Of a stretch of DNA of 48,260 nucleotides, positions 7,413 to 44,121 are shown one piece after another. The notes under the pieces are model-generated. The model was not told the DNA's origin. It worked only from the letters and a program-made list of their open reading frames with translations, and did no database searches. A program made the translations under genes and the position numbers. Location: positions 1 through 48,260 of the forward strand of contig CBDBIJ010000127.1 in NCBI GenBank assembly GCA_965205655.1, read 5' to 3'. How positions within the stretch are numbered: position 1 is the first letter of the stretch; every line of letters starts with the position of its first letter. The stretch comes from Candidatus Latescibacterota bacterium (GTDB taxonomy: Bacteria; Latescibacterota; UBA2968; UBA8231).

Positions 7413-8777
7413 ATGCCCGCTGATTCGGCGGTCCGTGGGCCCCGGCAACTTGCCCGCGAGATCTTTGACGCCGCCGTCCGCGCCGCGGATCCAGGCAAGT
7501 GCGTCTCCGAGGCGATCGATCTCGGGGTGAGTCAGCTCCGAATCCTGAATCGGAGCTATTCCTTCGACCAGTTCACCACTGTAATCGTCATCGGCGCCGG
7601 CAAGGCGACTCCGGCCATGGCCGCCGCCGTCGAGGAAACGCTCGGCGACCGAGTCGCCGGCGGCGCCATCAACACCAAGTACGACCACGCCCTGCCCCTC
7701 CAGCGCATTCACACTACGGAGTGCGGTCATCCTCTCCCGGACGCGGCCGGCATCCGCGGCACCGAGGAGATGGTGCGGCTCCTCGAAGAGGCAGACGAGC
7801 GCACCCTCGTCCTCTGCCTCTTCTCCGGGGGAGGCTCAGCACTCATGCCGGCTCCCGCGGCGGGTCTAACGCTGGAGCAGAAGCAGGATGCCACCCGGTT
7901 GCTGCTGGAGTGCGGCGCTACCATCGACGAGATCAATGCCATTCGCAAGCACCTGTCGCGGGTGAAGGGGGGGCTGCTAGCCAGGCTCGCCCGCCCTGCA
8001 GCCGTCGTCTCTTTGATGATCTCCGATGTCATAGGCGACCGGCTCGACACCATCGCCTCAGGTCCGACCTACCCCGACACGACGACATACTCCGATTGCC
8101 TGGGAATCCTCGAGCGCTACGATCTCATCGACCGCTTGCCCGACGCGGTGCTGGCTCACCTGAAGGCGGGTGAAATCGGCAAAGTCGCCGACACCCCGGG
8201 TGCCGACGACCCCTGCTTTGAGCGAGCCGTGAGCGTCGTGGTGGGAAATGCCTCGATAGCCCTGGAAGCCGCAAAGGTGACCGCCCAGAAACTCGGCTAT
8301 CGACCGCTCGTGTTGTCGTCGAGCATAGCCGGAGAGACCCGCGAGGTAGCGGGCGTACATGCGGCCATCGCCCGAGAGATCGCCGCCACTGGCCAACCGC
8401 TGGCCCCGCCCGCGTGCCTCATCAGTGGTGGAGAGACGACAGTGACGATCAAGGGAAAGGGAAAGGGAGGTCGTAATCAGGAATTCGCACTCGCTGCCGC
8501 CATCGAACTGCGGGGGTGCTCCGGAATTACGGTCCTGAGTGGCGGCACCGACGGTACCGACGGGCCCACCGACGCGGCCGGTGCAATCGCCGACGGCGAT
8601 TCCGTGCGGCGCGCCCAGGATCTGGGCCTGTCCGCCAGCGCGACACTGGATGACAACGACTCCTATCCCTTCTTCGAAGCCCTGGACGATCTCGTCATCA
8701 CCGGTCCCACCGGAACAAATGTCATGGACCTCCGTCTCTTTCTAGTGGATCGGCGAGACGAAGCGCAGCTATCTTGA
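7413..8777 (+). CDS. glycerate 2-kinase / hydroxypyruvate reductase (MOFRL family)
   Basis: GAGKA, GHPLPD, SGGGSAL, INAIRKHLSRVKGG, SDVIGD, IASGPT, GGETTV, GGRNQE, GTDGTDGPTDAAG, TGPTGTNVMD. Confidence 0.95.
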   Translation: MPADSAVRGPRQLAREIFDAAVRAADPGKCVSEAIDLGVSQLRILNRSYSFDQFTTVIVIGAGKATPAMAAAVEETLGDRVAGGAINTKYDHALPLQRIHTTECGHPLPDAAGIRGTEEMVRLLEEADERTLVLCLFSGGGSALMPAPAAGLTLEQKQDATRLLLECGATIDEINAIRKHLSRVKGGLLARLARPAAVVSLMISDVIGDRLDTIASGPTYPDTTTYSDCLGILERYDLIDRLPDAVLAHLKAGEIGKVADTPGADDPCFERAVSVVVGNASIALEAAKVTAQKLGYRPLVLSSSIAGETREVAGVHAAIAREIAATGQPLAPPACLISGGETTVTIKGKGKGGRNQEFALAAAIELRGCSGITVLSGGTDGTDGPTDAAGAIADGDSVRRAQDLGLSASATLDDNDSYPFFEALDDLVITGPTGTNVMDLRLFLVDRRDEAQLS

Positions 8778-8836
8778 CACCTCGGAGAGCTGACGGTACA
8801 CTCAGTTTTTCCTCGGTTCACGACCGGTTGCCAACC

Positions 8837-9775
8837 ATGCTGAAGTACTGGCTCCCAGCTCTCGGTCTCCTCGCCACCGCTTCAATGCGGCCGGCGAGCG
8901 CTGCCACTGCCTATGCCGGCGAGTTTCTCGCCGTCGGAGCGGGCGCTCGACCGCTGGCGCTCGGTAGCGCCTTCGTCGCTCTGGCCGATGACGCCACCGC
9001 CGGCTACTGGAACGCCGCCGGGCTGAGTCGCCTCGATGATCGCCAACTCCACCTCATGCATGGGGAGCGGTTTGCGGGGCTCGTCAACCAGGATTTTGTT
9101 GCCTTCGCCATGCCGGATGTTGCCGGCTTCGACGGCGCCTGCGTGAGCCTGTTGCGCATCGGTGTAGATGACATCCAGTTCACGATATTGCAGAACCCGA
9201 CGGGGCAGATCGGCCCGGACAACCGCCCGGTGCCGCTGGCGACGGCCAGTAGCGCCGATTACGCCCTCTACTTCTCCGCCAGCCGCAGGCTGAGTGCCAC
9301 CCTCGATATCGGCGCTAGTCTAAAGGGAATCTACCGCACGGTGGACACCTACAGTGCGCGTGGCTTCGGCCTCGATGTCGGTTTGCTCTATCGCATGAGA
9401 CCGAACATTACTCTGGCGGCCAATATCAAAGACGCGACGACGACCCCCATTGTCTGGGATGGAACCACCGACCGAATCCGCCCCTCCGTTACCATCGGAA
9501 TTGCCGTGGCCAGACAGGTTGGCGGCGGTAGGGCGAACGTCGCCCTGGGCTCGAGCGCCGGCGGCGACGCCGCGGATCAGTCCGGCGCCGAGCCACTCGA
9601 GGCAGGGGTCGAGTTTGAGCGCGGCAAGGTTGCGCTGCGAGCTGGACTCGAGGAGGAGCGGCCGAGTTTCGGCCTCGGGTTGCGCCCGCGCCCCGGAATG
9701 CAGCTGGACGTCGCCTACCTGCAGCACGATGAGCTGGAATCCACCTACTTCCTGTCTGCCTCCTTCGGCTTCTGA
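8837..9775 (+). CDS. PorV/PorQ-family outer-membrane beta-barrel
   Basis: Signal peptide then GEFLAVGAGARPLALGSAFVALADDATAGYWNAAGL (PorV/FadL-like N-terminus); ends FLSASFGF. Confidence 0.85.
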   Translation: MLKYWLPALGLLATASMRPASAATAYAGEFLAVGAGARPLALGSAFVALADDATAGYWNAAGLSRLDDRQLHLMHGERFAGLVNQDFVAFAMPDVAGFDGACVSLLRIGVDDIQFTILQNPTGQIGPDNRPVPLATASSADYALYFSASRRLSATLDIGASLKGIYRTVDTYSARGFGLDVGLLYRMRPNITLAANIKDATTTPIVWDGTTDRIRPSVTIGIAVARQVGGGRANVALGSSAGGDAADQSGAEPLEAGVEFERGKVALRAGLEEERPSFGLGLRPRPGMQLDVAYLQHDELESTYFLSASFGF

Positions 9776-13087: not shown

Positions 13088-13673
13088 GACCGCCTACATT
13101 GGGTTGGGATCGAACCTCGGTGACAGAGTCGCTTACCTCGAGGCCGCTGTCGCCGAGCTGGAGAATTTGGCCGGCGTCAGCGTGCTGTCCTCATCCTCCG
13201 TCTACGAAACGCCGCCCGCCGGCTTCCTCGACCAACCGCATTTCCTCAACGCCGTCGTAGCCGTCGAGACCGAACTGTCACCGCACGAGCTGCTGCAAGC
13301 ACTGCGGCTCATCGAGGACGGGCACAGGCGTCAGCGGTCAATCCGCTGGGGCCCGCGCACCCTTGATCTCGACCTTCTCGCCTGCGGCGATCGCGTCGTT
13401 CGCACTACAGACCTCACACTTCCCCACCCGCATCTCACGGAGCGCTGCTTCGTCCTTGCGCCGCTGTGCGAAATCGCTCCTGACTTGAAGCATTCCGTGT
13501 CGGGGAGACCCATGTCCGAATACGAACGGCAGCTCGAGTGTCGCGGGCAGGTTGCGCTGGCCGGCTCCCTGGCCGTTCCGCAAAGCTACTTGAGAAGGGT
13601 GACCCTGGAGAAGAAGCGGGTTTCCGAACCTCCAGCCACCGGTGATCCCGCCGCGACGAGCCCGACCACGTAG
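13080..13673 (+). CDS. folK: 2-amino-4-hydroxy-6-hydroxymethyldihydropteridine diphosphokinase
   Basis: AYIGLGSNLGD, SSVYET, FLNAV, RWGPRTLDLDLL, LTLPHP, RCFVLAPL; TTG start overlaps the folB end. Confidence 0.96.
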   Translation: MTETAYIGLGSNLGDRVAYLEAAVAELENLAGVSVLSSSSVYETPPAGFLDQPHFLNAVVAVETELSPHELLQALRLIEDGHRRQRSIRWGPRTLDLDLLACGDRVVRTTDLTLPHPHLTERCFVLAPLCEIAPDLKHSVSGRPMSEYERQLECRGQVALAGSLAVPQSYLRRVTLEKKRVSEPPATGDPAATSPTT

Positions 13674-15316
13674 GAGCCGCTCGCCACGGCTCGACCTGCG
13701 GCGTCCGTGCCGTCCCACTCCGCGATGTAGTCACCTCCCGGCAGCACGCCAGCGCGCAAGTGGCGAATTCGCTGTCCGGTCGTTCCGTAGACGGAGAGGT
13801 CAACTTCGGTGTGCTCCTTCACACTGAAAGGGATGCGCAGTCCGGCGTTGAACGGATTCGGGTAACCGATCCCCAGTCGCGCGTTCGTTGGCTCGATCGC
13901 GTCGCTCGCCGCCACCTCTTGCACTGCCGTGACGGTGGTTTGTCGGGCGGAGATCTCAAAACCCTCTCCATCGATTGACGTCCTGCCCACGATCAAGGCG
14001 AGGCTGTCCACTTCTGCGACGCTCACCGCACCTCGCATCTCGTCGTCGAGGTCGAGTTCCTGTAGGCTCGCGGCGTCACCACCGCTCATGCCGTATGACC
14101 AGACCCGGAAGCGGCCCGTATCGTCGCCGTCGAAGTCGATGGAGAAGCTGCCGGCAGTGCGAAACAGGATGTTCGTCGTGCCCCACTGTCCGGCGACGCT
14201 GAACTGGCGCCGCTCCAGAGGCAACCGGTCCACCCGATGCGTCTGGACCCGCCTGCCGTCGAGGGCGCTGTACGAAAACTCCCCGTCGTCGGAGGCGTAG
14301 TTCCCCACGACCCAGTTCGCCCAGGCGCCGCCGAAATCCTGCTCGATGTCGTTGGCGTCGAAAGCGGCGTCGATGCCGAAGCGGCCGTTGCGGGGCTCCG
14401 CCACGAGGGAGCGGATGAACTGGCCGCCGTAGCGCTCGGCCAGGAAGGATGCGAACAAGTAGGTAGCGCCGTAGTTGTGCGGCTTGGCGGCGAGGGGCCA
14501 CGAGGTGAGATCGGTCTGGGGCCTCATCAGGAATTCGGGTACTGCCGTTGCATCCGCCTCCGGAAATCCGGCGACCTCTTCGGCGTAGCCGGACAACCCC
14601 TCGTTTACCCACAGCTCCTCGTCCCGGTCGTGGTTCCAGTGGATGAGGTGCTGAAACTCGTGAGCCATGGTGCCGCGAGCGAGATAGGCACGGCGACGGA
14701 CGGCGAATTCATCCAGGTAGAGAACATCGCGCCTCAGTTCTGGAAGGTCGTGAGCCGCCACGGCCGGATCGAAGTAACCGATAAACTCCGCCCTCAAGAT
14801 GTCGAGAATGAGGAGAAAAATCTGCGGGTACCCGTCGACGTCCGACGGTTCGCCGAATGCCTGCACCGAGAGCTCGTACACGCCTCTTGCTGGGTCGGCC
14901 GGTGTGGCGCGGTCGAAGAGCACTCCCAGGCCATCCACATCTGACTGCAGCACCGGGCCGCCGTTCGAGTCCCATTGACGATCCTCCACGAAGATGAAGG
15001 TGTGATCGCCCACGTAACGGCAGGTGGCCTTCAGTAAAGTGGGAGAGCCTGAAACCGGAAACTCGAGACGGGTACCGACCGCGACCTTCGGCTTATCCTG
15101 GAGCGGTGCTTGGACTAGCTTCTGGGGTGCCTGCGGTGATCGGGCCTGTGTCTCCCGCTGCAAACGCAGCAGCTGGGTGCCGCACAGGTGCGATGAGGGC
15201 GAGGGCTCATCCCCGATCGCAATCGCAACCCATCCGGTCGTAGACAGCAGTCCGGCGATGAGGCATGTCGCAGCTCGTGACACTTGACGATGCACCCACT
15301 CGCGCGCCGGCGCCAT
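13586..15316 (-). CDS. secreted zinc metallopeptidase (M30/hyicolysin-like) with FlgD-Ig/T9SS-type CTD
   Basis: Signal peptide, HLCGT propeptide motif, TMAHEFQHLIH...WVNEGLS, C-terminal YPNPFN...WDGTD...ASGSY; TGATG coupling to the upstream gene. Confidence 0.85.
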   Translation of the reverse strand: MAPAREWVHRQVSRAATCLIAGLLSTTGWVAIAIGDEPSPSSHLCGTQLLRLQRETQARSPQAPQKLVQAPLQDKPKVAVGTRLEFPVSGSPTLLKATCRYVGDHTFIFVEDRQWDSNGGPVLQSDVDGLGVLFDRATPADPARGVYELSVQAFGEPSDVDGYPQIFLLILDILRAEFIGYFDPAVAAHDLPELRRDVLYLDEFAVRRRAYLARGTMAHEFQHLIHWNHDRDEELWVNEGLSGYAEEVAGFPEADATAVPEFLMRPQTDLTSWPLAAKPHNYGATYLFASFLAERYGGQFIRSLVAEPRNGRFGIDAAFDANDIEQDFGGAWANWVVGNYASDDGEFSYSALDGRRVQTHRVDRLPLERRQFSVAGQWGTTNILFRTAGSFSIDFDGDDTGRFRVWSYGMSGGDAASLQELDLDDEMRGAVSVAEVDSLALIVGRTSIDGEGFEISARQTTVTAVQEVAASDAIEPTNARLGIGYPNPFNAGLRIPFSVKEHTEVDLSVYGTTGQRIRHLRAGVLPGGDYIAEWDGTDAAGRAVASGSYVVGLVAAGSPVAGGSETRFFSRVTLLK

Positions 15317-16017
15317 CACCAACGTGTCGTGAGAAAGATCCCGAGCGCTCGCGGATTCGGCCCGGCGCCAACCTCCACGGTGGTGGAGCGCAACCGCACG
15401 GTCTCCTCATCACCTCCATCCTCGTTTCGGCGCAACTGCGAGCCGCCGCGGGCAGCGTGGATGGCTGCGATGAGATGGTTTGCCAGGAGGAGCCCGGTGG
15501 CGAAGACCGCCTGGCGGTCCGCCGTCTGCGCCGAGTTGCGCAGCTCTCTGTAGCGTTGGCGAGAGCCCTCGCTGTCCCACTCCCAGAAGAATTGGGCGCT
15601 CGTCGGATAGAGCTCAGCGTCCGCACCGTCCGAGACGAGGGCGAGCCTGTTGTGATCGCTGCGGCTGGCGTAGAATCCCAGATCGTCGAAGTACTGGCGA
15701 TCCTTGTGGGAAGGTGCTGCGCCAGCGCGCGCTGCAGCATGGGTCCGATAGGTATCGCCGCGGATGTCGGCCACGTGCCGCAGACCGAAGTAGCTCGCCC
15801 ACAGTCCGGCTTCGGCCACGGCGAAGCGCGCGGCGCTGCGGTGTTGGCCGAGGTGGCGCTGCCCCCACCCGGGGATGAGGAGGGAGTACCAGAACGCTCT
15901 GGCGGCCGCTTCGGTCTGAATTGGCGCCAGGATGAGCAGGGAACAAAAGACCGGCGTCCAGCGGAGACAAGGGCGGGAGTGCGAGCGGCCCGAGCGTGTG
16001 GACGAAGACCCAGGCAC
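15316..16017 (-). CDS. hypothetical membrane protein (DUF5683-like SLLIPGWGQ motif)
   Basis: YSLLIPGWGQRHLG, AEAGLW, NHLIAAIHAA; paralogous to the upstream gene; one-base overlaps at both ends. Confidence 0.75.
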   Translation of the reverse strand: MPGSSSTRSGRSHSRPCLRWTPVFCSLLILAPIQTEAAARAFWYSLLIPGWGQRHLGQHRSAARFAVAEAGLWASYFGLRHVADIRGDTYRTHAAARAGAAPSHKDRQYFDDLGFYASRSDHNRLALVSDGADAELYPTSAQFFWEWDSEGSRQRYRELRNSAQTADRQAVFATGLLLANHLIAAIHAARGGSQLRRNEDGGDEETVRLRSTTVEVGAGPNPRALGIFLTTRW

Positions 16018-17050: not shown

Positions 17051-20000
17051 CTACAAGTATCCGAACAGTACCGTGAGATAAAACTTCCACGGATTGCGAT
17101 CCTCCACCTCATCGAGGCCGTATGCGAGGTCCGCCTGCACCCGGGTCGGCATACTGTAATACGAGATCATGTCGAGACGCAACTGAGTGCCGACATCTCG
17201 CAGCATTCCAGTGCGTCCGTAGAATCGATCGGGATCGTCGAAGTCGCCGTCCCATGCTTTGCCGACATCGCCGTACACGGCCCCGTACAGCTTGTCGACG
17301 TAGAGATGAGCGAAGCGGCGCCGCGTATCGGCGAGCAGCGGAAATCTGAATGTGCCGTTCGCCATGAAAGCCTTGCGCCCTTCCATACTGTAGAAGGTGT
17401 ACCCTCGCATGAAGTTGAGGCCGCCGAGGTGGTAGTCGAAGAAGTCGCTTACCAGATCCTCATCGTCGACCTTGTCGCTCGCGATCCAGCCCCCGAACAG
17501 CCTGAGGCCGAGGGCGGTATCGCGTGGCAGTCCGACGTATTCCCTCCAGTCGACGGTGAACTGGTTGTAGAACAGATGGACATACTCCTCCTGGAGGAAA
17601 GAGACATTGCCCTCGTCGAAGCCCTCGAGGAAGTAGTTGAACATGCGGTCGTATTGCAGTAGTAGCCGCCGGCCGCGGGGACTGATATCGCGGTCACGGC
17701 GTCGGGATAGCACCTCGAGGCGATAGATCAGTCCCAGACCGAAGCCCTGTAGATAGGTATAGCCAAAGGGGCGCTGCTTGGCTCGCCGAAAGCCGGGCTG
17801 GCCGTCCTGTCTCGTTTCGAAGAAATCCCACTCGATACTGGCGTCATAGCGATCGTAGGTCAGCGCCAGCTCCAGATCGGCGTAACGGCCGAGCTTGCCG
17901 CGGGCCCCGGTGCGCACCTCGTTGAGACTGAAGTTCATGCCGGTGACGATTCCGGTGCGGGCCGCCGAGCTGTCTCCCCTCGATGTGTGACGCTTCTGGT
18001 TGTAGAATTCGAGAAACACCGTCGGACGCCAGCGCCGGTAGTCGTAGAGCGCGAACAGATCCCTGTCACCGTTTGCCGGAGCCAGGGCGGCGCCAACCAG
18101 GACGCTCTGCTTCATCAGAACGTCCGAAGAGGCCGCGTACACTCCGGCTTTGAGGCGACCTTCGTCTACGACTAGGCGAGGCAGCACGAGGGTGCGCAGA
18201 ATATCCACGCCATAAGGCCTCGAAGGCGACGTTGTACGGACGCCGATATCGGCGGAGGCCGATGACTGTCCGATCGAAGCCAGCTCGACGAGAGCGGAGC
18301 CGCCGATCTGCGACGTCGATCCTGGCTCCGACACGGGCTCTACACTACAATGCCAGCCGCCGCTCTCGTCCGCGTCATAGGCGATCGCAATTGCCGAATC
18401 CAGGGCCGCGTCGATCAAGTTGATCCGATATCCATCCGGTCCGAACGCTGCGAATGCCACCGTACCGTCTGGCCCGATCGTCGGCGTGATCGCGCCACCG
18501 ACCACATTGGTGACTTGTTTGACCGATCCCTTCCCCTCAACGTCTACTGAGTAGATGTTGAATATGCCGCTCGCGTCGGAGGCGAACAGGACCTCCTCGC
18601 CGCTGGGGCTCCAGACCGGATCGCGCTCCGTGGCAACAGTGGCGACCAGGGGCCGAACTGCGACGGCGGCGTCAATGTCCGCCATGTCCACGAGGACAAT
18701 GTCGCGCTGGCCACGCCGCGAGATGGAAACTACCAGCCTCCTCCCGTCAGGCGACCACCTGGGCGTGTAGAGCTGAGTGCCGTCGCCGTACTCGGTGAGA
18801 TACCTCACCTCGCTCCCGTCTGCCCTCATGAGGCCGAGGTTGTTGCTTCGCCCTTTGTTGTGTACGAAGCTTATCCATTCCCCGTCCGGAGAGTAAGCCG
18901 GATACATCCCCCTCAGCCCCCGACTCAGGCGACGGAGCTGCGGAGACGTGGAACCGTACCCCCGCAGCGTCGCCGGTGCCGACCACGCCATCCGGGATGC
19001 GAGGCTCCGCTTGGCCTTGCCGGAGTCGTATTCGTAGATATCTGCCTGGCGGGAACCGTAGCGATCCGCCTTGTCTTTGCGCACCCACAGGATCCGCTCA
19101 CCGTCGGCTGACCAGCTGATCGACGACACGACGGGGCTGGCGATCACTTCCTCCTCATCCGTTTCCAGATCGCGCACGATGAGAGCATGCGAGGCGTTGT
19201 GCCGATTTTGCGTGGACAGGTAGGCCAGACGCTTCCCGTCGGGAGAGAAGGAGGGGTGGAGATTCGAAAAGCCGGCCGCATCATCGAGGGGCCGTCCTTC
19301 CCGCAGTTCACCGAGCCCTTCTATCTGCGCCCGGTAGTTCAATCTCATAGAGTCTCTCCACGACTCGTACACCTGCTCGGCCGAGACACCGAGAGCGCTC
19401 TGGAATGCCGACCCGATCGTCATCGACTTCCACTGCGACAGAGATCGACAGATGTCGGCGAGCGCCTCGTCTCCGTAAGTGTGGGCTATGTATCGGACGA
19501 GTCCGTAGCCGTGGTCGTAGACATACTCGTTCCCGAAGCCGCGCTTGCCGAAGACGCCCATTTCGTCTAGAGACAGAAGCTGGTCGTTCACGACGGCCGT
19601 GCGCAGAGCCATATCTCGATGCGAGTCCCAGCGATCGCGCCGCGCAGATTGCACCTGATGCTGCGCGATTCCTTCTGCGAACCACATCGGAGAGACGGTC
19701 GCTACCACCGGATAGGAGGCGATGACGTCCGGGTAACCGATCAGGATGTCGGGACGATTCTGTTCCCTTTGATAACCCAGGTATTGCAGGTAGAGTGCAG
19801 GTACCCGCTGCGATGCCTTGCGGGCGGCACCCAGTGAAATGACGTGGGTGAACTCGTGCGTCACGACATTGCCGAGCCAGTCTGTGGCGCCCCGAAGCTC
19901 GTAGTCGTGATCGAGCGCGCTGGTCCAGATTTCGATCGTGTCCAAATAGAAGAAGGCGGCGCCGTTGGCGTAGTCGTCGTAGTCCTTGAGGATGATGCGG

Positions 20001-20224
20001 ATATGGCCGGAGGGCTCATAACCGTAGAGATCGGTGACGGGGCCGTACGCGGCTTCCGCCACCTCGGCCGTGTATGACGCGGCCTCGTCCAGTCCCTGAT
20101 GGAAAAGAATCCGGAAGTGTTCCGTCTCCACCACCTGCCAGTCCAGCTCGGGATGGTTTTGGGCCCCGATCGGCGTCGCTACGCCTGCTGCCACCAGGAG
20201 ACAGACCGGTAGAGTGGCCTTCAC
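17051..20224 (-). CDS. peptidase-MA-like + PD40/TolB beta-propeller + Omp85/BamA-type barrel fusion
   Basis: VTHEFTHVI...WFAEGIA; repeated PSFSPDG/PAYSPDG/PRWSPDG; LGGLNFMRGY (VRGY-like lid motif); C-terminal WKFYLTVLFGYL. Confidence 0.85.
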   Translation of the reverse strand: MKATLPVCLLVAAGVATPIGAQNHPELDWQVVETEHFRILFHQGLDEAASYTAEVAEAAYGPVTDLYGYEPSGHIRIILKDYDDYANGAAFFYLDTIEIWTSALDHDYELRGATDWLGNVVTHEFTHVISLGAARKASQRVPALYLQYLGYQREQNRPDILIGYPDVIASYPVVATVSPMWFAEGIAQHQVQSARRDRWDSHRDMALRTAVVNDQLLSLDEMGVFGKRGFGNEYVYDHGYGLVRYIAHTYGDEALADICRSLSQWKSMTIGSAFQSALGVSAEQVYESWRDSMRLNYRAQIEGLGELREGRPLDDAAGFSNLHPSFSPDGKRLAYLSTQNRHNASHALIVRDLETDEEEVIASPVVSSISWSADGERILWVRKDKADRYGSRQADIYEYDSGKAKRSLASRMAWSAPATLRGYGSTSPQLRRLSRGLRGMYPAYSPDGEWISFVHNKGRSNNLGLMRADGSEVRYLTEYGDGTQLYTPRWSPDGRRLVVSISRRGQRDIVLVDMADIDAAVAVRPLVATVATERDPVWSPSGEEVLFASDASGIFNIYSVDVEGKGSVKQVTNVVGGAITPTIGPDGTVAFAAFGPDGYRINLIDAALDSAIAIAYDADESGGWHCSVEPVSEPGSTSQIGGSALVELASIGQSSASADIGVRTTSPSRPYGVDILRTLVLPRLVVDEGRLKAGVYAASSDVLMKQSVLVGAALAPANGDRDLFALYDYRRWRPTVFLEFYNQKRHTSRGDSSAARTGIVTGMNFSLNEVRTGARGKLGRYADLELALTYDRYDASIEWDFFETRQDGQPGFRRAKQRPFGYTYLQGFGLGLIYRLEVLSRRRDRDISPRGRRLLLQYDRMFNYFLEGFDEGNVSFLQEEYVHLFYNQFTVDWREYVGLPRDTALGLRLFGGWIASDKVDDEDLVSDFFDYHLGGLNFMRGYTFYSMEGRKAFMANGTFRFPLLADTRRRFAHLYVDKLYGAVYGDVGKAWDGDFDDPDRFYGRTGMLRDVGTQLRLDMISYYSMPTRVQADLAYGLDEVEDRNPWKFYLTVLFGYL

Positions 20225-23200
20225 TTGCTCACCGCCATCTTGACCACCACGTGCGACCGGTCGCCGGCGCCCGCGTCGGCCTCGAGCTGACAGAGATACA
20301 GGCCGCTGGCGTACTTCTCAGTGGGCCAGCTGATTTCGTTCTCGTCCGGCACTTGGAGCTCGTCCCGCCCCACGCGGATGCGATCGAGGCGCTCCCCGAG
20401 GACGTCGAAAACTTCCAGCTCGACGTCGGCGAGCCGGCTCAGAAAGAATCTCAAGTGGGCCCGGTCGTCCTCACCGCCTACCGGATTCGGATAGCAGTAG
20501 GCCAGCTCCGGTGGCAATAGATCGGCCGCGATCGGTGCGGTTGGACCAGCGGGGAGCGTCGGATGCGAAAAGCGTCCCGCTGCACTCCGACCGCGCTGCC
20601 CCCATGCCACGGTGCCCCCGCCGTACGCAGATGAGAGAGCGGTGGGCTCCCACAGGTAGAGCTCGTTTCCAGCGACGGCGGCGATCTCGAGGTGGCCGTC
20701 CCCATCGAGATCGCCAGCCACTGGGTCGTAGGAGATCGGCGTTTCGGTGAGAAGCGGAAAACCCTCGAGCGGCACACCAGTATCATCGAACCCGTATAAG
20801 CCCCGCGTCGACCCAGTGAAGATCTCCTGACGGCCATCCCCGTCCAGGTCTGCGAGCACGGGAGCGAAGCGCAGCTCCCTGACATCGCGCACGACTGGAA
20901 AGCCAGCCTGAATCAGGCCGTTCGAGCGAATCGCGTGAACTCCATTCGATGACGCAGCGACGATCTCCAGGAATCCATCGCCGTCGAGATCGCCCAGAAT
21001 CGGGGTTGCGGAAATGGTGTCGGCGGCGATCTCGGTTCGAAACATCACCTTGTCGATGCCGGTTGCCAGGATGCTTCCAGTCTCCGAGACAATGATGACC
21101 TCCGCCCGTCCGTCGGCGTCCAAATCGCCGCATGCCGGCCCGAAGTGGCGGCCATCCTCGCTCCAGAGAGGCGCCAATCCGTTGGCGGATATCACCCACC
21201 CTTCACCTCCGTCGCTGGAGGCGACGACGAGTTCGGCTGATCCATCGCCGCTCAGATCCGCCGCCGACAACGAGCCCGCCTCCACTTCGTCGTCAAATTT
21301 CCTTTCGCCCGAGTCGGCGTCCAGCATGAAGACCGATCCTTCCGCACCGAGCACCAGGACGCGTTCACCGGGAAAGCTGGATAGATCGGCCGCGAAAAGG
21401 GCACTGTGCGGCTCGCTTGCGAGCCCTGAGAGATCGAATTCCCATGTTGTCGCCCCGATTTCTGCCGCCCCTTCCGGCAACGCCCGATTCCCAAATGCAC
21501 GCACGACGCCGTCGACGGAGAGGAACAGCGCAGTCATTGCGCCAGTCGAGCCACCATCGGTAGCAGCGGCGAGGCGCGCCCCTGCCGCTGCCCGTGCAGC
21601 GCCGTCGGCAGAAACGATCTGCACGCCGGACTCGTCCTCCACCAACAGCTCCAGATCGCCGTCTCCGTCGAGATCCGCACCCTGCAGACGACCGGCGCTC
21701 GCCACCGGTCTCGGCCATCCGCCCCTGACCTTGTTGAACTGGATCTGCACCTCCATGGTGTCGGCCAGCTCACTCAAAACCACTATCTCGATACCGGTGT
21801 CCGCCCCGTCGTTGCTGGTGCTGGGCGGCCGCGTCTGAGGACCGAAGGTGGTGGTTGAACTCGCTCCTCCCGGGCCTGTCCCCGCGAAGAACGGATCTGT
21901 CGGTGTCCCTTCCGTGAGATGTTGCTGATCGAAGAACAGGTTGCCGATATGGCGAAAGCCGTCCGCCTCCTCGAGGGCGATTCCGGGTCGGGCGCGATCG
22001 TTGTTGATACCCTCCTCGAAGCGCTCCTCGATGACGCTCTCATCGACGTGCCAGATGAGGATCCCCGAGCCAGGCACGAAGGCATCGTACTCATCCACCG
22101 CTGCCCATACGCCTGAGCCATGCCCCTCCAGCTCTCCTTTTTCACCCGCTTCCTCGCCCGTGATCGAGTGAGTGAATTCGATGCCCTGCGGAGGTATCCA
22201 CACGACCTCGTCCACTCCGGCGAATGGTGGGTCCAGCCCTTGCGGAACCCCGAAATTGCCGCGCTGCTGTCTGTTTTCGAGAAGGAAGTACTCCCTGTGT
22301 GCGATGGGTACGCGGACGGACTTTGGCAGTCCGCCGGCGTGCCGATCCGTGGCGACGATTTTCACCGTCGTGTCGCGTCGCACGACGAGCGGCTCGATCC
22401 ACCCCAATCTCGCCTTGCTCCACGCCATGAGATGAGGCGGTACGAAGCCGAAGACAGGTTCCCAGGTGTCGCCGTCGAGCACGTACCCCAGCCCCGTGGC
22501 CCCGACGTCCATCAGACTCCAGGTGCCGAGCGCAGGGGTTCCCCGTGCGGAGTTCGACAGGCTCGGCAGCCCGAGGACGAAGCCGAAGAATTTTGCCAGC
22601 AGGCCGTTTAGCCCCGCCCTGCCGAACCGGTCGGCCATCTCCGGCACGATCCACGCGTGGGGCAGCTCGAAGGCGCCGCCGTCGGCGCCGATAGGTGTCG
22701 GGCCACCATACATGTCGAGGTCGCGTCGGGGGAGGTAGACGGAGCGGATGTCGTTGATCTCGCCACTTTCCTGTCCCTGCCCCGGGTGTATGAACAGAAA
22801 GCTGTCGAAGTCGGAAAAAACAGCGTCTTCATCGGCGGCCGCCACGGCGTCCCGAATGAAATCGATCCACTTTTCCCCGATCTCCGCGGTCGATCGTCCG
22901 TTGCCGTAGAGGAGCGCCTCCTTAGGCAACCGGTAAGCGCCGCTCGTCTGGCGCGGCAGCACCGTGTACTCAATCGACAGACGGCCGTTGGAGACGACCT
23001 GATAGTAGCGGGAGAGGGCCTGGAGCTGGTGTTCGTAGAAGGTGCGGTCGTGCGGGGGTGTGTCGTAGGGGAAGGCGTAGTCGGGCAGAGCCTCCGAAAG
23101 GCTCCTCAGGTCGAACCGGCCGGTGCCCGTGGTCGATGGCTCGTCCGGATCCTCGAGGGGAAACTCGACCCGGATCGCGAGGATCCGGCAGGTGTCCGCG

Positions 23201-23259
23201 ACGACGTCGCCGACCCCGTCGCCGACTCCAAGCCTGGCTCCATGGGCCGTCGAGGCCAC
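20221..23259 (-). CDS. M6-like (immune inhibitor A-type) domain lacking zinc ligands + FG-GAP/VCBS repeats + T9SS CTD
   Basis: ILAIRVEFP, LSRYYQVVSNG, FIHPGQG, LGLP, WSLMDVG, PPHLMAWSKARLGW, EYFLLENRQ, GILIWHVDE; many DLDGDG repeats; YCYPNP...ASGLY...KMAV CTD; true start probably slightly upstream. Confidence 0.85.
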   Translation of the reverse strand: MASTAHGARLGVGDGVGDVVADTCRILAIRVEFPLEDPDEPSTTGTGRFDLRSLSEALPDYAFPYDTPPHDRTFYEHQLQALSRYYQVVSNGRLSIEYTVLPRQTSGAYRLPKEALLYGNGRSTAEIGEKWIDFIRDAVAAADEDAVFSDFDSFLFIHPGQGQESGEINDIRSVYLPRRDLDMYGGPTPIGADGGAFELPHAWIVPEMADRFGRAGLNGLLAKFFGFVLGLPSLSNSARGTPALGTWSLMDVGATGLGYVLDGDTWEPVFGFVPPHLMAWSKARLGWIEPLVVRRDTTVKIVATDRHAGGLPKSVRVPIAHREYFLLENRQQRGNFGVPQGLDPPFAGVDEVVWIPPQGIEFTHSITGEEAGEKGELEGHGSGVWAAVDEYDAFVPGSGILIWHVDESVIEERFEEGINNDRARPGIALEEADGFRHIGNLFFDQQHLTEGTPTDPFFAGTGPGGASSTTTFGPQTRPPSTSNDGADTGIEIVVLSELADTMEVQIQFNKVRGGWPRPVASAGRLQGADLDGDGDLELLVEDESGVQIVSADGAARAAAGARLAAATDGGSTGAMTALFLSVDGVVRAFGNRALPEGAAEIGATTWEFDLSGLASEPHSALFAADLSSFPGERVLVLGAEGSVFMLDADSGERKFDDEVEAGSLSAADLSGDGSAELVVASSDGGEGWVISANGLAPLWSEDGRHFGPACGDLDADGRAEVIIVSETGSILATGIDKVMFRTEIAADTISATPILGDLDGDGFLEIVAASSNGVHAIRSNGLIQAGFPVVRDVRELRFAPVLADLDGDGRQEIFTGSTRGLYGFDDTGVPLEGFPLLTETPISYDPVAGDLDGDGHLEIAAVAGNELYLWEPTALSSAYGGGTVAWGQRGRSAAGRFSHPTLPAGPTAPIAADLLPPELAYCYPNPVGGEDDRAHLRFFLSRLADVELEVFDVLGERLDRIRVGRDELQVPDENEISWPTEKYASGLYLCQLEADAGAGDRSHVVVKMAVSK

Positions 23260-23368: not shown

Positions 23369-24421
23369 TCAGAATATGAGGTTGAGGGAGAACCGCGTAT
23401 TGTCCTGCATCGGCGTGTCCTCGCCGGTAATGTAGGCCACGTCCACCTGGATTTTGCTGTACTTCAGCCCGATCCCGAAGGTGGGCGTCTTCAGCTCGCC
23501 GTCGTGATCCAGTGAGTAGCCTGCCCTCAGGGCGAGAAAGGACTCGTCCTGAACTGCCGAGAGGCCGTAGCGGTACTCGCCGCCGACATGCAGATCCATT
23601 TCCCGGAATTCGTCACCGAGTTTCTCGTCCGTCCAGGATGTCAGAAGATTCGAAGCGAACGTGCCGTCGGCGATGAGCGGCTTGTAGAGATCGACCGACA
23701 TCAGCATGTCGTGAAACTCGCTGTCCAAGAGCTCGTAGGCGGCACCCACGACGATGTGCTGGGGCAGCGGATCCGCCTGGCTGGCGTCGATGTAGGCGAT
23801 CTTCGGCCCCAGGTTTCGCAGCGCGGCGCCGAAATTGAGTTGCGGAGTGACCTTCCACAAAAATCCGAGATCGGCGGCGAAACTGTTGCCCACACCCTTG
23901 CCCTTCTCGATCCCAGCCCCCACATCTGCCAGATTGCTGCGGATGAACTTCAAACTGATGCCGGCTGACATGTTGTCGGCGATGTCGGCGCCGTAGGCCG
24001 CCGAAACGGCCAGATCGTAGCTGCTGAAGGTGCCGGTAACGGTACCGCGCTCGTTGGTTCGCGTTTGCTCACCGAGCTGCAGCAGCGCACCGTTCAGACC
24101 GATGTTGCCCCAACCCTCCACTGGTTGGGCGTAGGCGAGAAACTCGTATGACATGTCGTCGAAGCCAAAGGCGGGAAGCCACTTCGCGTGCGTGAAGCTG
24201 ACCTCCCTCGTCGTCTGTCCAGCCAGCGCCGCCGGGTTGAAGTAACTCGCCGTGGCGTCGTCGGCGATGGCGACGTACGACTCTCCCATGGCGATCGCCC
24301 TGGCACCCGGTTCGATCAGGAGAAAGAGGACGGCCGCGCGGCTTTCCGGGGTGGCCGCCGCCCGGCTGGCGCTCAGGCTCAGACCGGCGGCTACCAGCAA
24401 TAGGGTGAGGAGTGGTCTCAT
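23369..24421 (-). CDS. porV: T9SS outer-membrane shuttle PorV
   Basis: AVLFLLIEPGARAIAMGE...ADDATASYFNPA, FTHAKWLP, LKFIRSNL, NLGPKIAY, ALRAGY, NTRFSLNLIF; directly after porU; GGAGG RBS. Confidence 0.9.
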   Translation of the reverse strand: MRPLLTLLLVAAGLSLSASRAAATPESRAAVLFLLIEPGARAIAMGESYVAIADDATASYFNPAALAGQTTREVSFTHAKWLPAFGFDDMSYEFLAYAQPVEGWGNIGLNGALLQLGEQTRTNERGTVTGTFSSYDLAVSAAYGADIADNMSAGISLKFIRSNLADVGAGIEKGKGVGNSFAADLGFLWKVTPQLNFGAALRNLGPKIAYIDASQADPLPQHIVVGAAYELLDSEFHDMLMSVDLYKPLIADGTFASNLLTSWTDEKLGDEFREMDLHVGGEYRYGLSAVQDESFLALRAGYSLDHDGELKTPTFGIGLKYSKIQVDVAYITGEDTPMQDNTRFSLNLIF

Positions 24422-24488
24422 ATTTGAACTGCCTCCGTTTCGGGATCTTCGTGGACGCCCCAGCTCTCTGCTGAGTCCACCACCGATC

Positions 24489-27400
24489 TCATTGTACCAC
24501 CTGAACGATATCGGTGGTCTCGATCTCCGCGCCACTGGCGAAAATCGCCTTGATACGATAAAGATAGCTACCGTTCGCCAGCGGCTCCGGCGGATTCCAT
24601 GCGATCTGGTTGTAGCCGGGCTCGCCGGCGACATCGAGCTTATCGACGAGTTTTCCAGCGAGGGTAAATACGCTGATGCTCACAGTCCGTGCGGGGGCCG
24701 AAAGGATGTAGGTGAAGTGCCCCCGGTCCCGCATCGGATTGGGGTAGAACAGCATGTCGGAGAGCGGCGAGTCGCCCTCTTCCGAAACCTCTACCTCCAC
24801 CTGCACCGTGGCCGAATTGTTGAAGCCGTCCCACGCTTTGAGACGAATCTCGTGGGTGCCCGGTTCCAGCTCCGGGAGTTCATATTCCAGCACGCCGCTT
24901 CGATAGTCCCCGTCTCGATTGCTGAAGAATTCGGTCACCTCGAAGGTTTCGCCATCCAGGTTCAACACGATATGATGGCCCGGCCCTCCGGTGATGTTAA
25001 TGCCGCCAGCGTCCTCGATGACGATCTCCATGACAGGTCGTGAGGAGACGAAGTCGCCGCTGCGAAATCCGGTCTGCCCCATGAACCCCACCGTAATCGT
25101 CGGCCCTTCGTCGTCGGGCTCGACGCCTTCGGCCGTTCCGCCCAGGAAAATATCCGTCAAGGCACTGAAAGCGACCGGGCGCTGGTCGCCCCACGAATAG
25201 GCGCTGAGACGGCCCTCATTGGCATTGTAGTTGATATCCTTTGGCACCCGGAAAGTCGCCTCGAAGCGCCCTTCCTCGACCACGGCCAGGCTCCGGAACA
25301 GCGGAGCTCCGATCTGCCGGTAATCCAACCCTTCGACCTGGGCCCTGGCGCTCGAATCGAAAACCTGGATCAAGGCGCTGCCGCTGAACTGCCGGTCGGG
25401 ATGACCATCCGGGGCGATCACCTCCCCCTCGACGCGCACCTCCTCGAGGGCACTCATGGATTCCGGCGCATCCAGCCGGACCGTGTAGCGTGGCCTTGCC
25501 AGCCGCATGGCCGGATCCCCCAGCAGTGAATACCGCTGCACGTTACCGCGCTCTTTGGGACCGTCACCGACGACGGTTGTCACTTTGGCGAGAGTGAGCG
25601 CCAGCCCAACCGGCACGTGAGTTTCGTCCGAGCGGTACATGTGCCGATGAAACTGAAACGCGAGAATTATGTTGCTGCCGTGAAATCCTACCCGGGTAGC
25701 CGAAATGAACGCGATGACGCCCCCATTGGGGCGATTCAACAGGGCCTCTGGCATGGAGACGCGCGCCGGATCGTCGAAAACGCCGACCTGGCTCGCGGCC
25801 GTGTACATCAGTGGTAATCTCCTGCCATTGTCGATGGCGTCCAGATCGCGCGTCAGCACGAACATCTGCTCGTGAGCGAGGGTCTCGGGATTGCCGTGAC
25901 CGATATACGTGAGAATGAGGGCGCCGGCGTTGAATTGCCGGATGAACTCGTCGCGCGCCTTCGGCTTCGTGCGTCCCTCGAGCGGATAGTGTCCTATGTA
26001 GAGCTTTTCCGGGTTCAGATCCTCGGGCATGAATTGGCGGGCAATCGTCTCCGAATCCAGGACGAAGAAGTGTTCACGCTGACCCAGCTTCTGCGGATGC
26101 CTCACGTCGTCGGAGACGAGCAGTGACCGGACCTGCCACGGCCCGACCTCGGGGGATCTGTCGTAGTCGATGATCTTGTCCACGAGCCCCTCCGCTTGCG
26201 CCGCAGTCTGCACCGGGAGCCGCCCGATGGCTAGGTCGGGAATGCGGTCAGACCCTGCAACGCGGACGTACCACTCGTCGTACATGCTTTCGCCGTCCTG
26301 ATAGGCGGGAATCCAGTTTGTGTGGCTCGTGAGGGAATTGTTCTTGTAATCGTAGGTCGCGTCGCCCACGAGGAGGATGAAGAACGGGGCTGGATCCCAG
26401 TTATCTACGGCGTAATTCACGAAACTGCGGATCGCCATGGGGTCGAGAAGGCCGCCGGAAAACTCGTCGTAAACATCAGCGACGTCGACGACGGCCGTGC
26501 TCATCGGGGCGCCGAATCGATCATCCTGGGCCCGCCACGCGGCGAGGCGCTCCGAAGCTTCGCGAAAGTCGGCGTGAGTGATGATGACGTAGTCGGCTCC
26601 GTTGTCCCGCGTTTTCAACTGGCTTGGGGAATCGATCGCGATACTGGCTGGCCGTCTCCACTTCTCGGGCGGCGATACGATGTAGTGCGGCGGAACGCCC
26701 GTGCCGCCGAACCATCCCTCGAAGACGACGGTGCTGTCGGATTCGTCGTGAGTGAAGTCCACGATTTCCCGCATCGCGAAGACGTCGCCTGTGGCGAATA
26801 TCCGCGGCCGTTTATCGAACCCGCTCAGATGGAATTCGGCGATCGCGCCCTCGGCGTCGCGGCTCCCGGCAGGGAACCGGACCGCGTCATCCCACGAGAA
26901 GGCGAGCTCGCCATCCCGGGCGACCAGACGCCTCGTGTACTCCAGCTCGTACCAGTCCAGTCTCACGCTGTTGCCACCCTGGTGAAACAGACCGAGCTGG
27001 TTCAGCCCCTCGCGGGTGCCCGTCCGGGCCGTCGCACTGACCGTCCTGCTTTCGGAGCTGTTGAAGCCAACTGTCGTCACGCTCTGGTCGTTCCACTTCA
27101 CCTCGAAGGTCTGCGTCGCCTTCGTTCCCCCCCAAAACCGCACGTTGATCAGGACCGGCTCCCCGAGCACGGCGTTCCTGATGATGGTCGGGAAATTTCT
27201 CGCATTGCCGTTGAAGGATTCCCAGTACCAATCGTAACCCGACGGGATTTGCACAATCTGCCTGAGAATCAGGAACTCATCCTCTTTGTGCAGCCGCTCC
27301 CGGTACCGGTCCGAGTCTATCCCGCCGCCTCCCGGCGTGCCACTCGCGATTGCTGCCCTGGTGCCGGCCCCGGCGCTGCCGAGCTCCAGGAAATACACGT

Positions 27401-28382
27401 TGTCCTTCGTGTACATGTTGTGCCGCCATCGATACGTCCCCGTCGATCTGTTGTACTCCCAGCGGCTCGGCGGCTCGCCGTAGAAGAGCACGAAATCTTC
27501 CCGATCAAAGGAACCGTCGCCGCCGTCCTCGACGACGATTGCGGTCTCGCACAGATCGATGCCCCTCGAAGGCGCGCTGGCTCGACCGAGAATTGAGCCC
27601 CCCCCATACAAAAAGCGAATCCCGTCCGATTCGACAGCGCCGAGGCTGACTCCTGCGTCGATCACGTCCTGACCTGTCACCTTGTACACGCCGGGGCGAC
27701 CGCGCACCACCATTCTCAGTCGCGTTCCTTCTCCGGGCGCCTGTTGAGTCGGCTTCCAGGCCGGGACCCGACGCGGCAAACGCCATCCTTTTGCCTGATC
27801 GTAGTTGAGGACCATGTGCCTGTACATCATTTCCCCCCACCTATCGCGGTGGACGGGGGCACCGCCCGTTGGAGCCATCACCTTCGCACCCGAAAAGCTC
27901 ACGTCGACGACGACTCGATCATAAACGAGGATCTCGCCCTCTTCGGTCAGCCTCGGCGCGAAAGCCAGTCGGGCAATCCGCTGGTCGCGCGCGAAGCCCG
28001 TTTCCTCGACCACCACCGGTCCATCGGCCCGCACGAGAGCATCCTCCTCCGCGGAGAGTATTCTATCCGCCTCCTCGATGCCCGAACGCGCCAAAACCCG
28101 AGCCTCCACCACCTCGAGCTCCACCTCCGCATCGAGAGGAACGCCGATGGCGCAGGCACATATCAAGTTGCGCATCTGGGCCGCCTGCAGAGGCGGGCCC
28201 TCACCCGGCCATGAGGTCGGTTCGCGCTTGGCTTCGTACATCAGTCTCAACCCATCGGGCCGCTCCTCGACGACACTGATGACGGGATGCCAGAAACCCG
28301 TAAGCGTTTCGGCGTGGAGCGCGGCGCCGCAGGCGAGCCATGTGAAGAGCGAGGCGCACGACAACCGACCGTGAATGTTCAT
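24489..28382 (-). CDS. porU: T9SS sortase PorU (C25 gingipain fold) with CTD; catalytic Cys position reads Ser
   Basis: GVYKVTG, DYVIITH, VYDEFSGGLLDPMAIRSF, LLVGDATYDYKN, IGRLPV, YIGHG, YSLLGDPAMRL, FRVPKDINY, LKAWDGFNNS, YPNP...LANGSYLYRI. Confidence 0.92.
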   Translation of the reverse strand: MNIHGRLSCASLFTWLACGAALHAETLTGFWHPVISVVEERPDGLRLMYEAKREPTSWPGEGPPLQAAQMRNLICACAIGVPLDAEVELEVVEARVLARSGIEEADRILSAEEDALVRADGPVVVEETGFARDQRIARLAFAPRLTEEGEILVYDRVVVDVSFSGAKVMAPTGGAPVHRDRWGEMMYRHMVLNYDQAKGWRLPRRVPAWKPTQQAPGEGTRLRMVVRGRPGVYKVTGQDVIDAGVSLGAVESDGIRFLYGGGSILGRASAPSRGIDLCETAIVVEDGGDGSFDREDFVLFYGEPPSRWEYNRSTGTYRWRHNMYTKDNVYFLELGSAGAGTRAAIASGTPGGGGIDSDRYRERLHKEDEFLILRQIVQIPSGYDWYWESFNGNARNFPTIIRNAVLGEPVLINVRFWGGTKATQTFEVKWNDQSVTTVGFNSSESRTVSATARTGTREGLNQLGLFHQGGNSVRLDWYELEYTRRLVARDGELAFSWDDAVRFPAGSRDAEGAIAEFHLSGFDKRPRIFATGDVFAMREIVDFTHDESDSTVVFEGWFGGTGVPPHYIVSPPEKWRRPASIAIDSPSQLKTRDNGADYVIITHADFREASERLAAWRAQDDRFGAPMSTAVVDVADVYDEFSGGLLDPMAIRSFVNYAVDNWDPAPFFILLVGDATYDYKNNSLTSHTNWIPAYQDGESMYDEWYVRVAGSDRIPDLAIGRLPVQTAAQAEGLVDKIIDYDRSPEVGPWQVRSLLVSDDVRHPQKLGQREHFFVLDSETIARQFMPEDLNPEKLYIGHYPLEGRTKPKARDEFIRQFNAGALILTYIGHGNPETLAHEQMFVLTRDLDAIDNGRRLPLMYTAASQVGVFDDPARVSMPEALLNRPNGGVIAFISATRVGFHGSNIILAFQFHRHMYRSDETHVPVGLALTLAKVTTVVGDGPKERGNVQRYSLLGDPAMRLARPRYTVRLDAPESMSALEEVRVEGEVIAPDGHPDRQFSGSALIQVFDSSARAQVEGLDYRQIGAPLFRSLAVVEEGRFEATFRVPKDINYNANEGRLSAYSWGDQRPVAFSALTDIFLGGTAEGVEPDDEGPTITVGFMGQTGFRSGDFVSSRPVMEIVIEDAGGINITGGPGHHIVLNLDGETFEVTEFFSNRDGDYRSGVLEYELPELEPGTHEIRLKAWDGFNNSATVQVEVEVSEEGDSPLSDMLFYPNPMRDRGHFTYILSAPARTVSISVFTLAGKLVDKLDVAGEPGYNQIAWNPPEPLANGSYLYRIKAIFASGAEIETTDIVQVVQ

Positions 28383-28534
28383 GTAGCAGTGGGGGTTGAT
28401 GACCGGAGCCGAAAGGCCCGGCTTGCCGAAACCGGAGGTTCGGCGACGGTTTTCAGGAGATGTGGCCACCTTCGGGGAGGCCGCCGCGATGATTCTAACT
28501 AGGCCGCTCACCACCCTTTTGTCAAGGCAGCTGC

Positions 28535-28563
28535 TTGACGTATCTGCTTGACTCGACTACCTT
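28535..28563 (+). promoter_or_regulatory. sigma70-like promoter of rpmB
   Basis: TTGACG-N17-TACCTT. Confidence 0.55.
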
Positions 28564-28591
28564 TGTGGGCCCTTTTTACAGGAGTTCAAAC

Positions 28592-28819
28592 ATGGCCCGC
28601 GTCTGCCAGATTTCCGGCGTGAGACGGATGGTCGCAAACAGCGTCAGCCACTCGCAACGGAAGACGAAGCGAGTTCAGAAGCCGAACCTGATAACAAAGC
28701 GAATCTACATTCCCGAGGAAGGCCGGACCGTCACCCTCCGTCTGTCCGCCCGGGCTCTGCGCACGATGAACAAGAAGGGCGCCTATCGATACCTGAAGGA
28801 ACGCGGTATCAAGGTCTGA
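28592..28819 (+). CDS. rpmB: 50S ribosomal protein L28
   Basis: MARVCQISG...NSVSHSQRKTKRVQKPNL; AGGAG RBS. Confidence 0.97.
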   Translation: MARVCQISGVRRMVANSVSHSQRKTKRVQKPNLITKRIYIPEEGRTVTLRLSARALRTMNKKGAYRYLKERGIKV

Positions 28820-29666: not shown

Positions 29667-29954
29667 ATGATTGACAAAGAGTTGCTCGACATTCTCGCTT
29701 GTCCGGAGACCAAAGAGCCCGTCTACATGGCCCACCAGTCCGTGGTCGACGAATTGAACGGGCGCATCGAGCGGGGTGAGGTCAAAAACCGGGGGGGTAA
29801 GGGAGTGGAGAAGAAGATGGATGCGGGGCTGGTGCGCGAGGATGGGGCCTATCTGTATCCGATCGAAGACGACATTCCGATCATGCTCATCGATGAGGCG
29901 ATTCCGATCGGGGAGATGGGTGTTGAGGCGAAGCGCGCCGAACTCCCTGCCTGA
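29667..29954 (+). CDS. Trm112/YcaR family protein
   Basis: MIDKELLDILACPETK...YLYPIEDDIPIMLIDEAI. Confidence 0.92.
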   Translation: MIDKELLDILACPETKEPVYMAHQSVVDELNGRIERGEVKNRGGKGVEKKMDAGLVREDGAYLYPIEDDIPIMLIDEAIPIGEMGVEAKRAELPA

Positions 29955-42350: not shown

Positions 42351-43780
42351 GGTCAAGGCCCAGTTTCAGTTGAAACAAATCACAGGCTCTGGTGAGTGTG
42401 TCAGCCCATCATCGCGAGCTGTTTGATGCCGAGTTCGGCTTGTATGGCTTGCCGGAGCATCGGCAGATGGCGATAGCCCTTGACCCTGCGCAGACGTGGT
42501 TCGATGTCGAGCAGTGCCGTGGCTACCCAACGGTGACGCTGTGATGAGTTGGTCCAGCGTCGCACGTTGTGTGTGAGCTGCTCCAGGAGACTGTTGACGT
42601 TCTCGATGCAGTTGGTGGTGCGGAAGGAATCCTTGAGCATCGGCGTCAGTCCCAACCGATGGAGTGTGAGGGGTCTCTTCCATGCCTTCCTCGAGGCTGT
42701 GTAGGGCGGACTGATTCATCAACTTCAAGCCCGGTTTGAGCGCGTCCAGTGCCGCCTTGGCCGCCTCGTATCTCGGTTTGCCGTAGGCCGCCTCCATCTT
42801 GCGACCCATACCGGACTGCTCGCTTTTGGACAGATACGACACGACGTTCTGGCGCTTGTGATACTGGCAGCGCTGCACGCAGGCATGTCCTTTGAGCACC
42901 GACATCACCGCCTTGTAAAGCCCCTTGGCGCCGTCGATGACGACCAACAGTCCGGCTTCGTACTGCATACCGCGTTCGACCAGATCGGACAGGAAGCGAC
43001 GGCAGACGCGCTCGTTTTCCGTGGCCGCCTGCACGAAGCCAAGAGGAATCTTCTGTCCGTCGAGGGTGACGCCCAGGGCGATGATGATCTCCTCGTCCGC
43101 GAAGCTCTTGCCGTCGAGGAATAGCGCCACCAGATCATATCCTTCCAGGGATCGCTCCTGGAATTCAGCCAGCTTTCGAGCCGTGCCTTTCACGTAACGA
43201 CGGGACACCGATGAGGATGACAGACCAAAGGCCTCGGGTACGGCCTCAGCGCAGGCCTCGTAGTTGCGCGTGGCGATGCCCTTCAGCATCCGCAACAGCA
43301 GACCTTCGTCCATCTGTCGAGGCGTCTGCAGTGCCTGGTAAACATCCAGCGGGACCTCGGTATGGTTGGCCACGTTGCGCACCCGCGGCACATCGACGGG
43401 TAGTTTCTGGTCGGCCAGGTACACCGACCCGAGCTGAGACCCCCAGCGGCGTAACGGCTGATCCGACCCCTTGCGCTGATACCGCGGCCCAGCCAACTCA
43501 ACGACCGCTCTTTGCAGCTCCTCCGCGACCGCCTGCAGCCCCAAGGGAATCAGCCATTGGATCGCCTCGATCCGGCCATCCAGGTCCTCTACTTGCTCTG
43601 CAGTCTCGGGTGCTACCTTGCCGATGCTCACCGTTCGTTTGACGCCCTTCTTCCGTGCTACCAGCTTGCTCATTGCAGGCTCCCCATCGTTACCGATGCG
43701 AGACTTCTTCCAACGGGCTTCTCGTATCAAAACGTAACGATTGGAGCCTGTGCTGTTTCAACTAAGATCGGGACAAAGCG
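42351..43780 (-). mobile_element. IS256-family element, copy 1 (no target duplication; transposase frameshifted at ~42670)
   Basis: Nearly identical to 46045-47475; imperfect long terminal IRs (TTTCAACT core); G4 instead of G3 at 42670. Confidence 0.92.
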
Positions 43781-43805
43781 CGGCCCCGGCCCGGTGCCTG
43801 TAGCT

Positions 43806-44005: not shown

Positions 44006-44121
44006 TTGCCCGATCGACGCCTCACACGGCTACCCGACTCAAGTGCACGAGTTCGAAACCCCCCTCGACAGGGCCGGACCTGCGGCACATACTATCGATC
44101 TCTTTAGGCGAAAGAAGTCAT

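Follow-up and report, generated by a model that had tools for sequence, protein, structure and literature searches.

Several characterised systems lie close to the protein described here. PorU of P. gingivalis is a T9SS sortase with C690 as its catalytic residue (PMC5562754; review PMC10202324); it cuts cargo at measured sites of the form X/(GSA)(VLI) (PMC4560394), and PorZ delivers the acceptor (PMC10202324). The gingipains RgpB and Kgp, also of family C25, are hydrolases rather than sortases and combine a Cys nucleophile with a triad acid—D388 in Kgp, where the Gly after the catalytic His is the oxyanion-hole position (PMC6426963). In clan CD generally the substrate sits between the His and the nucleophile, and legumain is held in check by an acid at position +1 (PMC9604545). 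A natural Ser at the nucleophile position occurs in metacaspase 4 of Trypanosoma brucei (TbMCA4), a clan CD protein of the same fold class that keeps the His; it was shown to be inactive beside three active paralogues, and its S219C variant regains weak activity (PMC3220528).

Here we describe a PorU homologue with Ser in place of the Cys. The window, a stretch of 48,260 nucleotides from a Candidatus Latescibacterota bacterium, carries an intact minus-strand reading frame for a protein of 1341 aa, whose cluster representative P0002 has 1297 aa (Table 1). We read it as an intact Latescibacterota T9SS PorU in which Ser908 is the predicted nucleophile and which likely still processes cargo, with a probability of about 0.55. 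It shares with P. gingivalis PorU the domain layout, aligned His, Gly and Arg residues, a porV neighbour, and cargo linkers of the X/(GSA)(VLI) type. It differs in having Ser for Cys690, A-A-S-Q for A-T-C-D, a Cys-free catalytic domain, and FlgD_ig-type CTDs. The Cys-type PorU proteins of other Latescibacterota and FCB bacteria are direct orthologues (about 35-45% domain identity), often beside porV, but have His/Cys. Judged in this way, the Ser PorU is a PorU orthologue that lacks the membership feature of cysteine peptidases.

Table 1. Features of the porU locus and its surroundings, in window positions.
Feature	Position	Strand	Evidence or remark
porU, T9SS sortase homologue	24489..28514	-	Profile search, full-length NF033707 (PorU) match, 649 bits (curated cut-off 420); PF01364
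porU likely start, ATG	28382		Gives 1297 aa; signal-peptide-like stretch next
C25 (gingipain / caspase-hemoglobinase fold) catalytic domain, Cys-free	25500..26591	-	PF01364; model pLDDT 89.3
Asp802-Asp803-Val804	26103..26111	-	804 is the gingipain triad acid column, non-acidic here
His873-Gly874 in YIGHG, catalytic His and next Gly	25893..25898	-	His codon CAC at 25898-25896; His 227/227, Gly 220/221 Ser rows
Ser908 (AGC), nucleophile position, motif A-A-S-Q	25791..25793	-	Alignment; Ser in 221/227 clade rows
Arg941, aligned with PgPorU Arg722 (number counted from alignment)	25692..25694	-	227/227
PorU's own C-terminal T9SS sorting domain, FlgD_ig-like	24546..24725	-	Weak match
porV shuttle barrel, directly downstream of porU	23369..24634	-	NF033709 246 bits (cut-off 90); likely start 24421
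M6-like protein	20221..23259	-	Resembles NF052323 (below cut-off); neighbour in 51/76 porU loci
Peptidase-MA/PD40/Omp85 fusion	17051-20224		Conserved behind porU-porV
T9SS cargo with FlgD_ig CTD, candidate substrate	13586..15322	-	T/AV linker motif at 13930-13922
Second PorV/PorQ-like barrel	8774-9775	+	Best match PorV2 model, below cut-off; match ends early
IS30 transposase between two IS256 transposases	42366-47425		Near contig end
Small divergent genes	28535-28819 and 29667-29954	+	Resembling ribosomal protein L28 and a Trm112-like protein

The surroundings place the gene in a T9SS: porV is adjacent, and the genome holds SprA, PorZ homologues, 13 PorV-family matches, and 50 FlgD_ig matches, with CTD cargo among its proteins. 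With flanks limited in all counts, porV was found in 60 of the 76 porU loci examined, the M6-like gene in 51, and an Omp85-domain gene behind porU in 40. The M6-like protein, in which HExxH was not found, and the peptidase-MA/PD40/Omp85 fusion are possible unstudied T9SS parts. Two seemingly conserved ORFs upstream of porU were rejected as antisense shadows of small plus-strand genes.

Translation of the ORF confirms the earlier note's observation of an intact YIGHG His with Ser 35 codons further on, in the context LPLMYTAAS-QVGVFDDP (LPLMYTAASQVGVFDDP); half of the His/Cys dyad of PorU is present as His873, with Ser908 in the Cys position. In a gap-free alignment, Ser908 falls on the TATC cysteine (Cys690) of P. 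gingivalis PorU 6za2; it also matches the catalytic Cys of RgpB and Kgp. These gingipains are the best structural matches to the AlphaFold model (RgpB, Z 41.4, rmsd 2.2, 323 aligned residues; Kgp, Z 37.3), while latent PorU gives Z 20.4; the triad acid, RgpB E152 and Kgp D388, aligns with position 804 and is not conserved in the query. Arg722, the counterpart of Arg941, and H657 have presumed roles in P. gingivalis PorU, on which a literature search found nothing. By sequence inspection, the T/AV motif is absent ahead of PorU's own sorting domain.

Other readings of the site were tried and rejected. The Cys residues of the query lie only at 43, 53, 62, 119, 121, and 322; as the catalytic domain holds none, no other Cys can stand in as nucleophile, a way out that the earlier note had allowed for. 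A register shift, in which the Ser would be the -1 Thr/Ser and Gln would fill the nucleophile position, fails because the motif is anchored gap-free on both sides and Cys revertants read T-C-Q. Codon reassignment is unsupported, TGC encoding the Cys of the genome's other C25 protein. Sulfatases carry the formylglycine motif (C/S)xPxR; this motif is absent here, which speaks against conversion of the Ser to formylglycine.

The serine itself is confirmed. A mistake in sequencing or assembly, or a gene that decayed recently, might be suspected since TGC and AGC differ by one base, as the earlier note had cautioned, and since a second porU copy of the same genome is frameshifted. Against this, contigs from three runs of three studies (X1, X2, X3) extend across the site, and none is listed with a different letter at 25791-25793; X1 is possibly the source of the studied DNA, and elsewhere X2 has 4 differing letters and X3 has 18. 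No RNA run was listed as carrying the sequence, which speaks neither for nor against expression. Among the best 120 of 1050 homologues, Ser is found in 119, Cys in 1, and His in all; named relatives are mostly labelled Ca. Latescibacterota, the others Gemmatimonadetes. The contigs and homologues refute a read error; the ORF is intact as well, and we consider error or recent decay extremely improbable. The second Ser-type porU (AASQTAVF; L033, G000:C121:43277-46785) has its 5' part split over three frames—a pseudogene or an assembly error—and adjoins an ORF with a CTD-like tail. An AASQM paralogue group similar to it occurs in other genomes of family f1, the window's own.

The serine is a clade-wide trait. 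We compared 227 distinct domain sequences, with a second search from a basal member included and duplicates removed (the first set also lost matches under 300 aa); the nucleophile column reads Ser in 221 rows and Cys in 6, with no third residue, so that the clade departs from the cysteine nucleophile of clan CD and family C25 almost throughout. This answers the earlier note's question of whether Ser is fixed among relatives. His and Arg941 are each present in 227/227. The Ser forms make up one clade (support 1.0; 100/99 with motif columns removed), and on the evidence of this tree the Cys to Ser replacement happened once, in an ancestor. Members fall as low as about 49% identity to the query and come from family f1 and from f6, a family of another class; Cys was read in families f5, f7, f9, f10, f11, f12, and f13 (16 loci). 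The best 150 representatives of 50% clusters comprise 132 His/Cys, 12 His/Ser—the top-scoring relatives of the query—5 fragments, and 1 divergent domain without His. Ser codons are only AGC or AGT (27 loci and 72 loci, overlapping sets), the third base drifting while the residue stays constant.

Invariance of the Ser is by itself nothing special, as fixation of 97% or more is seen in 74 of 371 columns across 63 clade representatives; Asp802, Asp803, and Glu882 are also invariant in this set. The triad-acid column holds Glu in 91/132 Cys representatives vs 4/178 Ser rows, and Ala-1, Gln+1, Val+4, Pro922, and Gly943 became fixed together with the Ser, changes that likely reshape the active site. 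Given the braking role of a +1 acid in legumain, the neutral Gln+1 fits activation only loosely.

Within this clade the Ser has also been lost again. Cys forms nested in f1 are P0023 (present on 6 contigs), P0303, and P0318; a further Cys group, P0127, P0276, and P0278, is either revertant or sister to the Ser clade. A 30-row tree with the motif columns left out puts P0023 in one starred clade and P0303 and P0318 in another; the latter two are grouped with two Ser rows in a clade of four, where P0303 and P0082 form a pair (93/90). This placement suggests two, probably three, separate Ser to Cys reversions. The f1 revertants share second-site changes: Ala at +4 (3/3 vs 1/221 Ser rows), Thr at -1 (2/3 vs 0/221), and Leu after Arg941 (2/3 vs 3/221). 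Position -1 is Thr/Ser in 126/132 Cys relatives, the class that two of the revertants regain. Such changes would mean that neighbouring residues are adjusted to the nucleophile that a given protein has, which is what a working site should show. Two cautions apply—the TbMCA4 S219C case indicates that a site revertible to Cys can still be dead, and Cys is the residue nearest to Ser in shape, which weakens an argument from Cys being the only exit.

Cargo proteins offer a separate view of the enzyme. The T/AV-type motif fits the X/(GSA)(VLI) sites, and we counted T-[AGDE]-[VIM] 36-66 bases upstream of the CTD start [YF]PNPFN in 45 genomes, by patterns that can take in out-of-frame and double matches and have a chance level of about 4.5%. 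The motif precedes 231/538 CTDs in genus g13 (one PorU match per genome, Ser), 176/379 in other f1 genomes (Ser), and 31/106 in f6 (Ser), or 29-46% in Ser groups vs 26% in Cys genomes (89/348 in eight genomes with the Cys verified); of the 20 Ser-group genomes, 14 were read for the Ser itself, while in the other six, all g13, its presence was inferred. In seven genomes from other classes, PorU residue unread, the count was 50/229. Ten genomes of families f2 and f4 without an over-cut-off PorU match gave 3/51, the chance level. In-frame samples read by hand contained the motif in 7/24 cases in the window's own genome, 8/17 in G097 (which has several paralogues), 2/14 in G048, and 11/23 in Cys genomes, with 1/16, 0/14, and 0/22 in control windows.

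PorZ is distributed in the same manner: one query found a homologue in 20/20 Ser genomes vs 0/10 PorU-less genomes, and matched 3/5 PorU genomes of other classes while missing 2/5. SprA is kept in 5/5 PorU-less genomes tested. Both motif and PorZ go with the presence of PorU in either its Ser or its Cys form, rather than with the Cys PorU2-like protein described below; the genomes compared are kin rather than independent, and PorU loss is perhaps one or two events. As far as such sequence patterns can tell, retention of the motif and PorZ shows continued engagement or recognition of cargo rather than cleavage; for CTD removal with transfer to an LPS-type acceptor, they are indirect signs at most. 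Genomes of f2 and f4 (for example, G025 and G080) have SprA and about 5 CTD starts each but lack PorU, a PorZ match, and the cleavage motif; their T9SS is apparently reduced, lacking the attachment module.

PorU copies number up to four per genome, and many f1 genomes, the window's included, additionally encode a His/Cys C25 protein of 1800-2200 aa. The copy in the window's genome (L032, G000:C15:51316-57120) has 1935 aa and the motif LSCLNG; it is PorU2-like, although below the PorU2 model cut-off (scored on 1354 aa of 1935), and is without an equivalent of Arg941. This PorU2-like protein is the only C25 type found in f2 and f4, and it is missing from five complete Ser genomes. Each of these five genomes is a single contig, 93-98% complete (four from f1, one from f6), and has just one PF01364 protein, every time the Ser form. 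FlgD_ig-type matches in three of them number 118, at least 150, and 100.

The earlier note had left two options for this protein, a dead scaffold or a Ser-nucleophile transpeptidase. We favour the latter, because only Cys replaces the Ser, cleavage motifs and PorZ are kept, and five complete genomes have no Cys back-up. On this account, which we hold with slightly better than even confidence, the Ser PorU would be a natural Ser-nucleophile enzyme, the first on the caspase/gingipain fold, which is elsewhere described as Cys-dependent: a sortase anchoring or releasing 50-150 cargo proteins via an ester, in a lineage where Ser and Cys have replaced each other several times, each switch accompanied by fitting changes at second sites. 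CTD cargo would be handed over by PorV; Ser908 would then attack the T/A bond in the T-[AGD]-V linker, releasing the CTD and forming an acyl-enzyme that is an ester rather than a thioester. This ester might be resolved by a PorZ-delivered acceptor, resulting in surface anchoring, or by water, resulting in release. The chemistry also poses the main difficulty: with the His and nucleophile of clan CD on either side of the substrate (PMC9604545), the His cannot activate a Ser in the manner of serine proteases, and the usual general base is missing unless the site has been remodelled. Loss of the triad acid in most Ser rows counts against a Ser nucleophile as well.

The same difficulty supports the scaffold option, which we keep as a possible but weaker rival. 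Here Cys to Ser would have turned PorU into a permanent trap or scaffold that holds PorV, PorZ, and uncleaved cargo via the T/AV linker; Ser and His would persist because they serve binding and shape, and the Cys revertants would be re-activated copies. TbMCA4, a natural His/Ser protein of the caspase fold that is inactive (PMC3220528), provides a precedent, although the Ser PorU, unlike TbMCA4 with its active paralogues, has no other family member beside it in several genomes. The triad-position acid is lost in f1, and a genome with as many as four PorU copies could be in keeping with a stoichiometric binder. Cys to Ser changes are used to inactivate this fold, as in a separase C2029S entry (9hm7) among the structural matches. 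What tells against a scaffold is that Ala, Gly, Thr, and Asn never occur at the site in 227 rows, though one transition in AGY would give Gly or Asn, that the His is never lost, that PorZ, the acceptor deliverer in P. gingivalis, is retained, and that single-C25 genomes would have one copy, without turnover, for at least 100 cargo genes. The earlier note's further idea, that a dead PorU would release its cargo, is doubtful, since cargo of the P. gingivalis C690A mutant stays PorV-bound with its CTD on (PMC5562754). It is unlikely that labour is divided, the Ser PorU only recognising cargo while the Cys PorU2-like protein or a non-C25 protease cuts it; the long His/Cys C25 in the window's genome and many other f1 genomes would suit such an arrangement, but the five complete Ser genomes encode a single C25 each, and genomes with only the PorU2-like type are without the T/AV motif.

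A literature search covering listings and abstract openings, with few subscription papers, found no report of a Ser PorU, and the word 'serine' does not occur in PMC4357240. One lead concerns oxygen. A strong match to COX1 (cytochrome c oxidase) is present in 14/14 Ser genomes vs 1/18 PorU genomes of other classes (4/18 at a looser cut), and resistance to oxidation is a possible motive for the Ser; the comparison is phylogenetically confounded, and we treat it only as a lead because it reflects one or two evolutionary events and because Bacteroidota with an aerobic lifestyle keep Cys.

If the Ser PorU is active, this lineage would reveal a route to hydroxyl activation at a clan CD site, and its natural Ser/Cys pairs, which share about 80% identity, would allow a direct test, with a bearing on oxidation-resistant peptide ligases. 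The switches between Ser and Cys, with their second-site changes, would, if true, map the residues that set the choice of nucleophile. If it is dead, these bacteria would run a T9SS with an uncleaving attachment module for at least 100 cargo proteins, an arrangement undescribed in the literature searched.
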